Numbered from the stretch's first letter, positions 2,300 to 64,000 are shown. The stretch: 64,000 nucleotides of DNA from a virus (IMGVR_UViG_3300010340_000989:100997-164996), one strand, 5' to 3'. A program made the numbers and translations. The notes: a model not told the origin generated them from the sequence alone.

Positions 2300-3055
2300 A
2301 TGGGAAGTTTTGGAAATGTAATTCCAAAAGAAAGAAAAATATATGGAAACTGGCAAGTAAAATCACCAGAAGGAATTCTTATGTTTCGTTGTGGTGAAAA
2401 AAAAGCTATGTGGTATGTTAAGCGTGATTTAGGTGAGATAGTTCAAGATAATCCAAAAATTGTTCAACTAAAATTTCAACCTAATGGTCTCGGGAATCAC
2501 CAAAAAAAGTATGGTTTAACAGAAATGTTAAACAAATGTGTTGTCTGTGGTACAGATGAATACTTAACCAGACATCACGTTGTTCCATATTGCTATCGAA
2601 AATTCTTTCCAGAATCAATAAAGTCTCATAATTTTCACGATGTTCTTTCACTTTGTATTGATTGTCATGAAAATTATGAAAAAAAAGCAACTGATTTTAA
2701 AATAAAATTATCTGAAATTTATAATGCACCAATTAATGGAGACTTATTTGATAATAAAGACTTAATAAAAGTTAGAAAGTTAGCTAGTTGCTTAGTTAAT
2801 AATATACATCAAATGCCTAAGTATAGAATCACTGAAGTTAAAAATGAAATTAAAACATATTTTGGTTTAAAAAGACTTCATATAAAAAGACTTGAGAATT
2901 TAATGAACATAGAGTTTAAGATTATAAATAGAACACACGGTGAATTAGTTGTTAATAAAATTGATAATATCGATAGTTTTATGAAATCTTGGAGAAAACA
3001 TTTCATAGAAAATAATGAATGTAAATATTTACCAAAAAACTGGTCAGTAGAATGA
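2300..3055 (+). CDS. HNH nuclease homologous to the C-terminal domain of eukaryotic EXD2
   Basis: KKAMWY, LKFQP, CVVCG, TRHHVVPYCYRKFFP, HNFHDVLSLCIDCH. Confidence 0.75.
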   Translation: MGSFGNVIPKERKIYGNWQVKSPEGILMFRCGEKKAMWYVKRDLGEIVQDNPKIVQLKFQPNGLGNHQKKYGLTEMLNKCVVCGTDEYLTRHHVVPYCYRKFFPESIKSHNFHDVLSLCIDCHENYEKKATDFKIKLSEIYNAPINGDLFDNKDLIKVRKLASCLVNNIHQMPKYRITEVKNEIKTYFGLKRLHIKRLENLMNIEFKIINRTHGELVVNKIDNIDSFMKSWRKHFIENNECKYLPKNWSVE

Positions 3056-3666
3056 GAATGAGAGAAACGGATAAAAAAATTTTAGATAAAATAACTAAAG
3101 CATCTAATATAATTGCTTTAAAATCTAGAGGATCCGGTGCTAGTTGGATTATCGCTTCTGCAAAATTGACAGCAAAATTTGATGAAGTATTTAATAATAG
3201 TAAAATCAGAGAAGAACGAGATAAAAAAATAAACGACTTATTAAGTATGAGTGATAAACAATTAAGATATGATATTACATATTTAGAAATGGCTAAAACT
3301 TGGTCAAACTTATCACACTGTGATAGAAAAAAAGTAGGAGCTTTAATAGTTAAAAACGGGATGATTATTTCTGATGGGTATAATGGTACACCATCTGGAT
3401 ATGATAATTGTTGCGAAAATGACAATTGGGAAACACATTGGTATACTATACACGCCGAATCAAATGCGATTTTAAAATGTGCTAGATGGGGTCATTCTTG
3501 TGAAGGTGCTACTTTGTATTTAACTCACTCACCTTGTAAGGATTGTTCAAAATCCATATTGCAATCTGGAATAAAAAGGGTTGTATATGCTGAAAATTAT
3601 AAAGACCTTGAGGGTGTAGAATTTTTAATAAATTCTGGAGTTCAAGTAGAAAAAATAACAATTTAA
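3052..3666 (+). CDS. dCMP deaminase with ~65-aa N-terminal extension
   Basis: KVGA, GYNG, HAESNAI, SPCKDC zinc motifs; internal Met at 3247 may be an alternative start. Confidence 0.9.
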   Translation: MRMRETDKKILDKITKASNIIALKSRGSGASWIIASAKLTAKFDEVFNNSKIREERDKKINDLLSMSDKQLRYDITYLEMAKTWSNLSHCDRKKVGALIVKNGMIISDGYNGTPSGYDNCCENDNWETHWYTIHAESNAILKCARWGHSCEGATLYLTHSPCKDCSKSILQSGIKRVVYAENYKDLEGVEFLINSGVQVEKITI

Positions 3667-3667
3667 A

Positions 3668-4147
3668 ATGAAATTTGATGTCAGTTTATTTTCACAATTA
3701 GAGAAAAAAGAATTTCAGGCACATTTTAATAGTGAACTTGATATTTCATCAATGAAGCTATTCTATGATAACTGCATCAGAATGGGTGGGGATAGTAATA
3801 GTAATATTCAGATAGCAACTATACATCCAGATATTTGGTTCGGAGATCATTTTGAGCTTTTAAATAGTAAAATAAAAATGGTTGTTGAATCACCAGTTTT
3901 TCAATTAGTTAGAATTGAGGGTGGTCAATTAGTTTGTCAAAACTATTCATCAGATCAAATTACTTTTTCAACAGATCAAGATTTAATTAATTTTTTTGAA
4001 CATATGTCTGAATTTGGTTCTTTAGCAGTTTTTAGTCTTGTTAAATACTTAGATGTTAGAACTCTACAATCTTATTGGAACTTAAGATATAAAGATATAT
4101 CTACAAAAGAAGAGATAAGAGATAAAAAGATTAGTTCTATTATTTAA
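3668..4147 (+). CDS. Hypothetical protein with C-terminal RxxKIxxII tag
   Basis: Operon ORF ending EEIRDKKISSII. Confidence 0.75.
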   Translation: MKFDVSLFSQLEKKEFQAHFNSELDISSMKLFYDNCIRMGGDSNSNIQIATIHPDIWFGDHFELLNSKIKMVVESPVFQLVRIEGGQLVCQNYSSDQITFSTDQDLINFFEHMSEFGSLAVFSLVKYLDVRTLQSYWNLRYKDISTKEEIRDKKISSII

Positions 4148-4255
4148 TATATAAATCAATTAAAATCTAATCAAGTGTTTTTGATTTGTGAGTGAGAGGT
4201 TAGGTTTCAAAACTTAAAAAAATTATGGACTCTGAGAGTTGTTATAAAAGCGAAA

Positions 4256-4519
4256 ATGAAGGAGATAAACAGAAAGAAGCTGGCGACACTATTCCTACTT
4301 TTAGGAATGTTTTTTTCACCTCTAGGCTTCGACGCAGTTCAGTATATTCTAATAAAATTGACCGGTTCCTTATTTGGTGCGAATTTGGCGTTATATTGCC
4401 TTGCGGCATTTTGCTTTGGACTCTACTTTATATTTTCGGGATATAATCCCATTTCAGAAGTTCGAAATATAGTTTTGAGTATTTATAATGATAAAATAAA
4501 ACATTATTTCAAGAGGTAG
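4256..4519 (+). CDS. Small two-TM membrane protein
   Basis: Two hydrophobic segments around FSPLGFDA; TAATATATA at 4145-4153. Confidence 0.6.
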   Translation: MKEINRKKLATLFLLLGMFFSPLGFDAVQYILIKLTGSLFGANLALYCLAAFCFGLYFIFSGYNPISEVRNIVLSIYNDKIKHYFKR

Positions 4520-62234: not shown

Positions 62235-62603
62235 TTATAATTTTTGTTCTGTTTTACCGTGTGGAAATGGTTTGCCTTCTTTATCAAGAGATACAAATAC
62301 CATCTTATCAATTTGTACAATAATATTATCAGTGTCTTTGTTAACTACAATTACTTTAAGTGTGATTGACGTGCGACCAAAATTAGTTGGTTCAACACCA
62401 ATTTTAATAACATCTCCTTGATATGCGGGTGATATGAAATTAATCTCAGAAATCAATTTAGTTACAATGTTCTTTGTATCTAATTGACACATAGCATACA
62501 CAGCTGCTTCTTCATCTATCCATTGTAATAGACGACCACCAAAAAGAGTCCCACGAGGATTCAAATCTTCTGGTTTGATTAGTTTTCTTGTATAAAAGTT
62601 CAT
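62235..62603 (-). CDS. Acyl-CoA thioesterase (hotdog fold)
   Basis: PEDLN..GTLFGGRLLQWIDE, GRTSI; ATG 62603 lies downstream of TATATTTG 62623-62630. Confidence 0.88.
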   Translation of the reverse strand: MNFYTRKLIKPEDLNPRGTLFGGRLLQWIDEEAAVYAMCQLDTKNIVTKLISEINFISPAYQGDVIKIGVEPTNFGRTSITLKVIVVNKDTDNIIVQIDKMVFVSLDKEGKPFPHGKTEQKL

Positions 62604-62637
62604 TTTTATAAATTTTAACATTCAAATATACGGATAA

Positions 62638-63027
62638 TTATCCAATTATGTTATTAATTTTATAATCTCTTTTAATTACTAACCAATCTTCCATTTTTAG
62701 ATTATGTGGGTCTACCTTATAATATTCTCTAAACACAATTATAAATGCAAGACTATCTAAGTCGTGTAACAAATATAGATCATTTTTATTCTTTGATTCA
62801 AACCAAATGGCACACAATTCCGGATTTAATTTTTTTCTATACCCATCGATCATCAAACTCCATTCATAATCACTAGAGGATTGTTCATTAAATTCTGAAT
62901 CACAAAAATGACATCTAAAAACACCATTTAACTCATCTATCCAAATATACTTGTTAGGTTTGTCACCATTAGGATCACAACTTTTACAAGGACATTGATT
63001 ACTCTCACCACAATTAGGACAAATCAT
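62638..63027 (-). CDS. Zinc-finger hypothetical protein with C-terminal tag
   Basis: CPNC, CPCKSC, CHFC; ends VIKRDYKINNIIG. Confidence 0.7.
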   Translation of the reverse strand: MICPNCGESNQCPCKSCDPNGDKPNKYIWIDELNGVFRCHFCDSEFNEQSSSDYEWSLMIDGYRKKLNPELCAIWFESKNKNDLYLLHDLDSLAFIIVFREYYKVDPHNLKMEDWLVIKRDYKINNIIG

Positions 63028-63416
63028 TTATTAAGAATAAAGTTATGGATATATCCCATTTCTTCTGAATCAAAATTAACAAGAATTGCAGGCATTGATT
63101 CATTTTTTTGAAATAAATTAGGACTATTGATAAATTCATCATTGATAGCAACAACTTCATCAAAAGAGTTATCAAAATGTAAATCTATTTCATTCTCAAT
63201 GAATGAATGTACTTTTAAAGATCCATTTGTCATGATAATGTTTTCTCTTTTAATTCCAACTTCATCAGATTTATTAAAAACATCAAAATTTGAAAGTTGT
63301 GGATCTCGACTTGTAATAATAAAAACATCGTGTCCAGATGATATGAAAAGCTTACACATCATCTGCACAAATTTATTATCACCTAAACATCCATCAAAAT
63401 CAAACGATATCTTCAT
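63024..63416 (-). CDS. Minimal HAD-superfamily hydrolase
   Basis: ISFDFDG, IITSR, K, HFDN. Confidence 0.75.
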   Translation of the reverse strand: MKISFDFDGCLGDNKFVQMMCKLFISSGHDVFIITSRDPQLSNFDVFNKSDEVGIKRENIIMTNGSLKVHSFIENEIDLHFDNSFDEVVAINDEFINSPNLFQKNESMPAILVNFDSEEMGYIHNFILNK

Positions 63417-63418
63417 TA

Positions 63419-64000
63419 CTACTTGTCTAATATATCATTAAGTTTATTATTTCTTTTATTTTTTTTTGTTTCAAATTCTATAAATAAATTTGGAGACATT
63501 CGGTAATCATCAATTTCAGAAAATAAATTATTTTTTTTAGATTCAGATTTACATAATAATTTATTATCAAGAATATAGTAATAATAACCATCTTCAAATT
63601 CACAGACTATATCTCTATGTAAAACTTTATCCCACCTATCCTCAAATCCCCAATCAGTATCACGATCATATATTATTGATGCAATTATTAAGATAATACA
63701 TAATATTATAAATGCTGCCCAAGATATAATAAGCCAAATATTATCAGTATCTATTGTTATATAACCATCTGATGATATAGGTTGTTCTTTAGCAAAGTCT
63801 AAAACTTTAAAACTATTACTGTCTCCACTATATGGGATAACATAATAAGTATTAACACCATATTTAAATGTTGTAATAACTTTTGCCTGTTCTTTCAGAT
63901 CATAGTTACAATTAAAAATAGGATATAGTAAAGCAATTGCACATAATATCATAAACATTTTTATACGATTTTCTTTGATCGTATAAAATAAAAATCTTAA
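63419..64000 (-). CDS. Membrane protein with C-terminal tag; 5' end probably outside the window
   Basis: Frame open from 64000 through ATG 63958; two TM segments; ends KNKRNNKLNDILDK. Confidence 0.65.
   Translation of the reverse strand, partial: LRFLFYTIKENRIKMFMILCAIALLYPIFNCNYDLKEQAKVITTFKYGVNTYYVIPYSGDSNSFKVLDFAKEQPISSDGYITIDTDNIWLIISWAAFIILCIILIIASIIYDRDTDWGFEDRWDKVLHRDIVCEFEDGYYYYILDNKLLCKSESKKNNLFSEIDDYRMSPNLFIEFETKKNKRNNKLNDILDK

Follow-up and report, generated by a model that had tools for sequence, protein, structure and literature searches.

A short helical peptide, hereafter the tag, ends many of the proteins encoded by a 64,000-nucleotide stretch of phage DNA (the window) and by the contig to which it belongs. 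The window (IMGVR_UViG_3300010340_000989, bases 100,997-164,996) is the right end of one 164,996-bp phage contig in IMG/VR, with a guanine-plus-cytosine (GC) content of 27.5%. The tag is present on about one protein in five, mostly on small orphan proteins that are unrelated to each other and that are probably made early. That it is a selected, portable, protein-level C-terminal helix, carried by approximately one fifth of the proteome, is well supported. As for the partner that reads it, our best guess, which we put forward tentatively on the basis of gene distribution and of a predicted complex, is a phage-encoded pair formed by a vWA-zinc-metallopeptidase (vWA-zincin) and a MoxR-class AAA+ ATPase.

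A shared motif at the C termini of phage proteins

Our gene set comprises 247 non-overlapping open reading frames (ORFs), 91 in the window and 156 to its left, which cover 96% of the contig DNA; coordinates are window positions unless marked 'contig'. When these ORFs were searched with the strict pattern R..K[LI]..[IL][ILF], 22 of the 247 matched at the C terminus, defined as the last 15 amino acids (aa), versus four internal matches across the contig. N termini gave no match and the reversed motif gave one. Shuffled whole proteins had a mean of 0.045 C-terminal matches (maximum 1) and tail-only shuffles a mean of 0.15 (maximum 4), the C-terminal enrichment over shuffles being approximately 500-fold. 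Among 661 ORFs that had not been picked as genes, two ended in the motif, one of them probably a real gene. Thus, the C-terminal position of the motif, first noticed in a first-pass annotation of the window, reflects a true enrichment.

An iterated position matrix extended the set to 49 C-terminal carriers (20% of the 247 ORFs), 8 of the 91 in the window and 41 of the 156 to its left, and 43 of the 49 lie on the minus strand. In 41 carriers, 0-4 residues separate the motif from the stop (range over all carriers 0-17, mode 1), and the median carrier has 101 aa, versus 187.5 aa for the other ORFs. In the 43 high-scoring tails, arginine is invariant (43/43; position 1), preceded by a hydrophobic residue at -1 and, in 17/43, by lysine at -4. 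It is followed by D/E/N (40/43), any residue, K (32/43), I/L (42/43), N/D/K/S, K/N/D/E, I/L (40/43) and finally L/I/F or G. After this core come 0-4 polar residues and the stop. A sub-variant of the tag ends in ...K-L-G-I.

All the C termini listed in the first-pass annotation were recovered in the window, in ORFs 3668-4147 (+), 13333-13875 (+), 26221-26577 (-), 56551-56832 (-), 62638-63027 (-) and 63419-63958 (-). The copies reported as internal (in ORF 3052-3666), degenerate (RREDVINEIL) and ending in IREYKLSKIL are equally real sequence. The matches in the window are:

3217-3243, plus strand: internal copy RDKKINDLL, residues 56-64 of ORF 3052-3666
4118-4144, plus strand: tag RDKKISSII, at the extreme end of ORF 3668-4147 (159 aa)
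13840-13866, plus strand: tag RDIKLSRHL, followed by NI, ending ORF 13333-13875 (180 aa), directly upstream of dnaJ; position 8 atypical (H)
26230-26256, minus strand: tag RDLKLSDLF, followed by TL, ending ORF 26221-26577 (118 aa)
26577-26606, minus strand: IREYKLSKIL and then a stop, in a 32-codon frame without an ATG, GTG or TTG start
46052-46078, plus strand: weak match RILKTKKII, end of ORF 45149-46084 (311 aa); score 11.2, the lowest accepted
50791-50817, minus strand: degenerate tag REDVINEIL, 16 residues before the end of ORF 50740-51105 (121 aa)
56560-56586, minus strand: tag RQKKLKNIL, followed by NH, ending ORF 56551-56832 (93 aa)
62644-62670, minus strand: tag RDYKINNII, followed by G, ending the zinc-ribbon protein of ORF 62638-63027 (129 aa)
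63428-63454, minus strand: tag RNNKLNDIL, followed by DK, ending ORF 63419-63958 (179 aa, hydrophobic N terminus)

The internal copy closes a tagged module of some 63 aa, and a dCMP deaminase (residues 64-201) follows it as an in-frame fusion. In the 635-kb uncultured phage LR745206 the deaminase stands alone, and a separate tagged ORF of 51 aa lies directly upstream. The LR745206 orthologue of ORF 13333-13875 terminates in DRDIKIKSITSD. The frame ending in IREYKLSKIL is offset by one base from ORF 26653-26787 (-), which ends at a TGA, while the tag frame runs on to 26577; judged from the sequence, this is either a tagged gene of about 75 aa broken by a frameshift (a pseudogene) or an assembly error. 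Chance probably explains the weak match at 46052-46078.

Outside the window, a 296-aa class II aminoacyl-tRNA-synthetase-like (AsnA-like) protein (contig 69772-70662, minus strand) has RAMKIKNLI as its last residues, where an 82%-identical orthologue has RAMKLKNLI. This ending may be the tag on an enzyme or the native end of the family; a comparison of the protein with the PDB gave no match.

The tag is selected as a peptide

The codons of the tag differ between carriers. Arginine is encoded by AGA, CGA or CGT and the hydrophobic sites by ATT, ATA, TTA, CTT, CTA or TTG, with a second-position T that is invariant at the three hydrophobic sites. Codon choice thus varies with amino-acid class while orthologues keep the tag, and the view that conservation acts at the protein level is correct. 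In related contigs, orthologues retain the tag at 26-45% body identity. For the zinc-ribbon carrier (62638-63027), 11 homologues with identities as low as 45% all keep R120, K123 and I128, and a structural model (predicted local distance difference test (pLDDT) 80) places the tag within a terminal helix formed by residues 112-128. A DNA-level signal at gene ends, be it a promoter, a RegA-like site or a recombination cassette, is out, as the codons and the distance to the stop vary and relatives with 39% GC keep the peptide.

Nor does descent from a common ancestor account for the carriers. An all-against-all BLASTP comparison of 26 carrier bodies, with the tails removed, gave no match better than E 0.005, and scans of the carriers against Pfam and PHROG found no common family. 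This excludes paralogy, and for the 26 bodies tested the proteins are as unrelated as had been proposed.

Plotted on a helical wheel, the conserved residues share a single face, where the invariant arginine lies central among three hydrophobic positions. Because this arginine sits in the middle of a hydrophobic patch, the arrangement argues for protein recognition rather than a membrane anchor. The one-sided conservation, together with a switch at position 2 that affects a whole genome (see below), is most simply read as docking on one common partner. Hence, of the 'amphipathic docking helix' proposed in the first-pass annotation, the portable C-terminal helix acting at the protein level stands, and docking on a single partner would be its best reading.

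Several likenesses of the tag did not hold. The tail profile matched PDB sequences only at chance level (E at least 0.8). An ending ...KLxxLGI on proteins of T4-like cyanophages was not borne out in the first 50 kb of P-SSM2. A resemblance to the first helix of HeH/SAP/Rho_N domains (ELRxxAKxLGI) fails by reasoning, as the spacing is off by one residue and the second helix is absent. Sliding-clamp peptides have the consensus QL[SD]LF, or acidic-aromatic C-terminal tails in T4 and RB69. The consensus of the tag contains neither Q-L-x-L-F nor such a tail and so does not match these peptides.

The tag is a trait of a clade of huge phages

The DnaK of the contig is 83% identical to that of LR745206 and its ClpC-like protein is 77-78% identical to the LR745206 counterpart, while one 42-kb stretch of LR745206 contains homologues of 25 contig proteins. 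We therefore regard the contig, whose completeness is 52% by CheckV, as a piece of a huge phage. The host would be of Bacteroidota type, to judge from TAnnTTTG promoter boxes and a type IX secretion system (T9SS) CHU_C domain protein.

A tail profile (alignment A2) had 46 matches in this contig and 33 at E ≤ 0.01 in LR745206; in complete huge phages it had one in LR756504 and none in LR756501, LR756508 or Lak-A1. A motif-free search for enriched tail patterns recovered R..KI both here and in LR745206, and nothing comparable in LR756501, LR756508 or P-SSM2. LR756504 was found to have a sister tag: in two sampled regions, 21 of 133 ORFs end in R-x3-[I/L]-x2-[I/L/V], with position 2 being K in 12 of the 21 and never D.

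All 11 IMG/VR relatives fetched by their MoxR, with GC contents of 26-39%, carry the tag. In a set of 19 large contigs seeded by DnaK, and thus unbiased with respect to MoxR, all six genomes that are 91-98% complete (344-508 kb) are tag-bearing; near-complete tag-bearing relatives span 344-635 kb. Tagged tails were not detected in G008 (30% GC, 0/219 ORFs) or G018 (32% GC, 0/125 ORFs), two phages that encode DnaK and the ClpC-like protein and that each share about a dozen genes or fewer with this phage; for P-SSM2 the count was 0/56. With LR756508, LR756501 and Lak-A1, this makes five DnaK-bearing phages of like size or base composition from which the tag is absent. The tag is thus common to huge phages that form a large clade, and the distant relative LR756504 has a sister variant. 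Since it is lacking in the AT-rich G008 and G018 and present in relatives, it is a lineage trait and not a by-product of composition or host.

Other endings were observed in passing. In LR756501, DPYGEENW(D/S)(E/K) terminates three small proteins that are unrelated to each other and may represent another C-terminal tag, and a 416-aa protein of the window (10726-11976, minus strand) ends in ...YDEIDPYDE. In the ENA contig L057, whose MoxR is 37% identical and is flanked by two DUF2201 genes, about five nearby proteins end in ...[EK]-N-L-E-[FL]-[LV]..., possibly another lineage-specific tail.

Two mutually exclusive tags

A second tag, MK-x-LK-x-F, is found at the N termini of 21 proteins in the contig. 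None of them is among the 49 proteins with the C-terminal tag (Fisher p = 0.01), in line with the claim that no carrier has both. The N-terminal tag occurs in arrays with starts MK-[HY]-LK-[RK]-F-[EN], at 19148-23576 (+) and 53970-55324 (+) in the window and at contig 60583-62483 and 80082-81953, and its genes mostly follow an AT-rich late-like box. Directly adjoining the array at 53970-55324 are a radical-SAM gene (55314-56270) and a protein of 94 aa with a Ser/Gly/Cys tail (56230-56514).

The two sets of genes differ in their promoters. Genes for the C-terminal tag form runs with host-type TAnnTTTG promoters, the TAnnTTTG (-7) box preceding 10 of 49 and an AT-rich late-like box 3 of 49, versus 10 of 24 with the late-like box among the genes for the N-terminal tag. 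This suggests that the C-terminal tag probably marks early proteins, although 'early' is a label that we infer, since the promoter patterns are crude. 'Two-address protein-sorting code', as the first-pass annotation called it, is a fair description of two mutually exclusive tags, which are indeed there, whereas the readers, and with them any sorting, are inferred.

A vWA-zincin and a MoxR ATPase as candidate readers

The genes of our candidate pair lie outside the window. The MoxR-class AAA+ ATPase (contig 74298-75413, minus strand; 371 aa) has the Walker A motif AKPGVAKS. The vWA-zincin (contig 86014-87591; 525 aa) combines a DUF2201_N domain (HEDFH) with a DUF2201 vWA domain carrying the metal-ion-dependent adhesion site (MIDAS) DTSGSM, with both HExxH and MIDAS intact. 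The two genes are 10.6 kb apart, each behind a full host-type TTTG-N17-21-TAnnTTTG promoter. Around MoxR (contig 73364-75413, minus strand) the order is MoxR, a 68-aa ORF and a PF04308 RNaseH-like protein (YkuK-type), and this order is kept in LR745206 and in a 48%-identical metagenomic relative (L054).

We compared the distribution of the tag with that of its possible readers. In eight complete or near-complete tag-bearing genomes (the six DnaK-seeded genomes described above plus LR745206 and LR756504), the vWA-zincin was detected in 8/8, MoxR in 7/8, the ClpC-like protein in 8/8 and DnaK in 8/8. In the five genomes without the tag, the corresponding numbers were 2/5 (LR756501 and, weakly, Lak-A1), 1/5, 4/5 and 5/5. 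Considered by themselves, the six DnaK-seeded genomes have the vWA-zincin in 6/6 and MoxR in 5/6, and both LR745206 and LR756504 have the tag, MoxR and the vWA-zincin. LR756508, G008 and G018 have neither tag nor pair, yet the ClpC-like protein and DnaK are present in them. This sample is small, and related genomes are not independent.

A complex was then predicted from MoxR (a 102-row alignment), the vWA-zincin (49 rows) and the last 34 residues of the zinc-ribbon carrier at 62638 (34 motif-aligned tails). It scored 0.53 (runs 0.51, 0.58 and 0.53), versus 0.10 for the best of three controls, which amounts to weak support. Two unrelated 34-mers scored 0.00, and replacing the vWA-zincin gave 0.10; because of this fall, the predicted docking would need the vWA-zincin and not MoxR alone. 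The runs agreed in at least 89% of contacts, with a partner pLDDT of at least 72. In calibration, 58 of 80 solved complexes reached the mark, as did 2 of 110 mismatched pairs; at 0.60 or below it was reached by only 7 of the 80 solved complexes but by both mismatches. These counts hold only roughly here since our own alignments were used.

Taken together, our model would be as follows. A terminal alpha-helix some 14 residues long, with the sequence [K]-x-x-x-[hydrophobic]-R-[D/E/N]-x-K-[I/L]-x-x-[I/L]-[L/I/F], plus 0-4 polar residues, is appended to about a fifth of the proteins and would serve as an address label. A single partner would read one face of this helix, where the invariant arginine is flanked by three hydrophobic residues and by a lysine and an aspartate. 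The docking partner would be the phage vWA-zinc-metallopeptidase working with the MoxR AAA+ ATPase, and tagged proteins would be passed to this ATPase-peptidase pair for trimming or timed removal, as if FtsH had been split in two. An address label read by the vWA-zincin and MoxR for trimming or timed removal is the best explanation we have as a whole, albeit one that we hold with less than even confidence; what happens after docking is the most conjectural step. It is doubtful whether the model extends to a general scheme in which huge phages of Bacteroidota-type hosts run a tag-directed handling system. Here, a C-terminal helix of 9-14 residues would deliver early orphans to a MoxR-driven vWA-zinc-peptidase, to be matured or cleared on schedule, and tag and reader would co-evolve, giving the D-type in this phage, the K-type in LR756504 and other tails elsewhere.

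If one partner does read the tag, a fifth of the genes in a widespread group of huge phages, nearly all of them orphans of unknown function, would acquire a shared handle for study. The phages would have a way to address or time dozens of proteins together, and the MoxR/vWA-peptidase pair, which many jumbo phages carry without known substrates, would have its first concrete job. In genomes of uncultured phages, the tag can also serve to pick out genes of a single functional class, probably an early one, and it offers a short peptide bait for its reader.

A number of observations weigh against this candidate pair. By the prediction tool's own account, weak passes are wrong more often than they are right, except for guesses that were likely beforehand; the output gave no contact list, and the partner alignment, composed of motif-aligned tails of unrelated proteins, is unorthodox. 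The co-occurrence is confounded by relatedness, and the ClpC-like protein and DnaK are also in every tag-bearing genome. LR756501 encodes MoxR (47% identity) and the vWA-zincin, but the 77 kb sampled contain no such tag; Lak-A1 has a weak vWA-zincin match and lacks the tag; and in tag-bearing G001, MoxR was not found. The contig being about 52% complete, further candidate readers may have been missed. Ahead of the tag, the aligned tails show no conserved cleavage site. Binding of the tag aspartate (Asp2) to the vWA MIDAS is not indicated either, because the MIDAS is intact in LR756504, where the aspartate is lost. Finally, Iyer et al. (2021, PMC7824862), who name neither a tag nor substrates, proposed that the equivalent pair in group 2.2 jumbo phages acts in virion assembly.

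The C terminus of the vWA-zincin itself, R-T-N-N-K-V-K-Q-I-V, at first resembles the tag. It is predicted to form a beta-strand, in a low-confidence model, so we take the resemblance to be coincidental. The AlphaFold model of the protein has a mean pLDDT of 41 (82-89 over the C-terminal region), too poor for a fold search, and a profile search of the PDB gave no match. A full-text search of the literature returned no description of the tag or of a function for DUF2201.

Relation to described MoxR and zincin systems

The pair of group 2.2 jumbo phages consists of the same MoxR-class ATPase and vWA protein with an N-terminal HExxH domain (PMC7824862). In contrast, the genes studied here have early host-type promoters and lie apart, and we propose, on weak evidence, that they read a C-terminal tag across the proteome.

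Bacterial zincin modules linked to vWA-MoxR conflict systems process small precursors that diverge fast but share a conserved C-terminal peptide, which is of the FxSxx-COOH, RxD or acidic type (Kaur et al. 2020, PMC7159879). Zincin (DUF2201_N, HEDFH), vWA (DUF2201, DTSGSM) and MoxR are all present in our contig, and so are small variable proteins in which only a C-terminal peptide is conserved. However, the bacterial modules are operons with one or few adjacent precursors from which peptides are released, whereas here about 50 phage genes are dispersed and not adjacent to the peptidase. Moreover, zincin and vWA domain form one protein here, the motif is none of the four published types, and any cleavage is hypothetical.

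In NorQ-NorD, the last residues of the vWA protein NorD dock hydrophobically on the MoxR ATPase NorQ and are essential for the stability of the complex (PMC13036017). A C-terminal end that docks on a MoxR machine is also what we propose. There, though, the docking tail belongs to the vWA cofactor and contacts the ATPase, while in this phage the tail is on the clients and the prediction depended on the vWA-zincin, whose own C terminus is a predicted beta-strand and not a tag-like helix. The descriptions of these three systems contain neither the motif nor a proteome-wide tag, and a search of the literature gave nothing closer.

Alternative explanations for the tag

A host protein, such as a Bacteroidota protease, chaperone, RNA polymerase or membrane machine, could read the tag, either as a handle for hijacking or as a turnover signal. 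The carriers do resemble early, host-facing orphans, the host appears to be Bacteroidota-like from the promoter boxes and the CHU_C protein, binding by phage proteins is so far a prediction, and LR756501 has the vWA-zincin without such a tag. We nevertheless consider a host reader unlikely. The AT-rich G008 and G018, as well as LR756508, with their related DnaK and ClpC-like proteins, are entirely tagless, and the genome-wide change from D to K at position 2 would be easier with a co-evolving phage reader, though a change of host would also do.

Two phage chaperone systems are further candidate readers. Their genes in the window are:

8822-10687, plus strand: DnaK
13925-14959: DnaJ
48619-50733, minus strand: ClpC-like double AAA+ protein with a UVR-type middle domain and a VGF loop (residues 555-557), without a Clp N-domain

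According to the leading suggestion of the first-pass annotation, the ClpC-like unfoldase, together with host ClpP, could recognise the tag as a degron or as an adaptor site. The UVR middle domain would suit this role, and the VGF loop is presumably a ClpP-docking loop. Clp and FtsH proteases are known to recognise basic and hydrophobic degrons at C termini, and the gene is in all tag-bearing near-complete genomes. Yet homologues with 49-58% identity are encoded by four tagless phages (LR756508, LR756501, G008 and G018), and the N-domain that usually receives adaptors is lacking, with only about 65 acidic or basic residues before AAA-1. The degrons of ssrA, the MuA-type ClpX motif and FtsH substrates are unstructured, anchored at the free C terminus and read by one machine. 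The tag is like them as a short C-terminal signal on unrelated proteins, but it is a helix with an invariant internal arginine, ends 0-17 residues before the stop with variable, polar trailing residues instead of a fixed carboxylate, and is on a fifth of the proteome. ClpC as reader is therefore not supported as it was stated, and we regard it as improbable; the MoxR/vWA-zincin pair fits better, if weakly so. In the IMG/VR record G004, the ClpC-like gene is split into two ORFs.

Alternatively, there may be no common reader, and the helix may be an intrinsic module born in AT-rich 3' ends that serves self-association, as a stabilising cap or in weak contacts with membranes or nucleic acids. The tag residues use AT-rich codons (AGA, GAT, AAA, ATT, AAT, TTA) that could conceivably have arisen by read-through, and the carriers are very small. 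We give this possibility little chance. The arginine, central on the hydrophobic face, is invariant in the 43 high-scoring tails, position 2 switches genome-wide in LR756504, equally AT-rich phages are entirely tagless and the tag is strongly conserved in orthologues, all of which points to a single, specific binding site that co-evolves with the tag.

That the tag marks clients of the phage DnaK/DnaJ or recruits proteins to it, or that it directs loading into the capsid, is very improbable, even though the window contains the genes of both chaperones, the gene of one carrier immediately precedes dnaJ, basic and hydrophobic peptides suit DnaK and C-terminal cargo peptides load encapsulins, which have the HK97 fold. 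DnaK is encoded by all five tagless phages (the four with the ClpC-like protein plus Lak-A1), so that DnaK too is unsupported as the reader, and neither it nor the ClpC-like protein, present in five and four tagless genomes respectively, travels specifically with the tag. The tag is moreover helical with one-sided conservation, not an extended hydrophobic core. As to capsids, the capsid targeting sequence of T4 comprises about 10 N-terminal residues that the prohead protease removes after Glu. Like this signal and the encapsulin peptides, the tag is a short portable address on unrelated proteins; it is, however, C-terminal, it differs in sequence from the encapsulin peptides, with which it shares its position, and its carriers look early, with host-type promoter boxes. 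Capsid loading is already a fitting role for the T4-like N-terminal tag, whose 21 proteins do not overlap with the C-terminal carriers. Because the genes for the C-terminal tag have host-type promoters and those for the N-terminal tag a late-like box, an address for the capsid or another phage compartment, as the first-pass annotation had also considered, fits poorly.

Elsewhere in the contig (contig 25585-45554, plus strand, outside the window), we observed a row of five very large proteins of 1138-1534 aa, the last three of which are paralogues of about 1300 aa that start with MSHYPKI(F/L)D.

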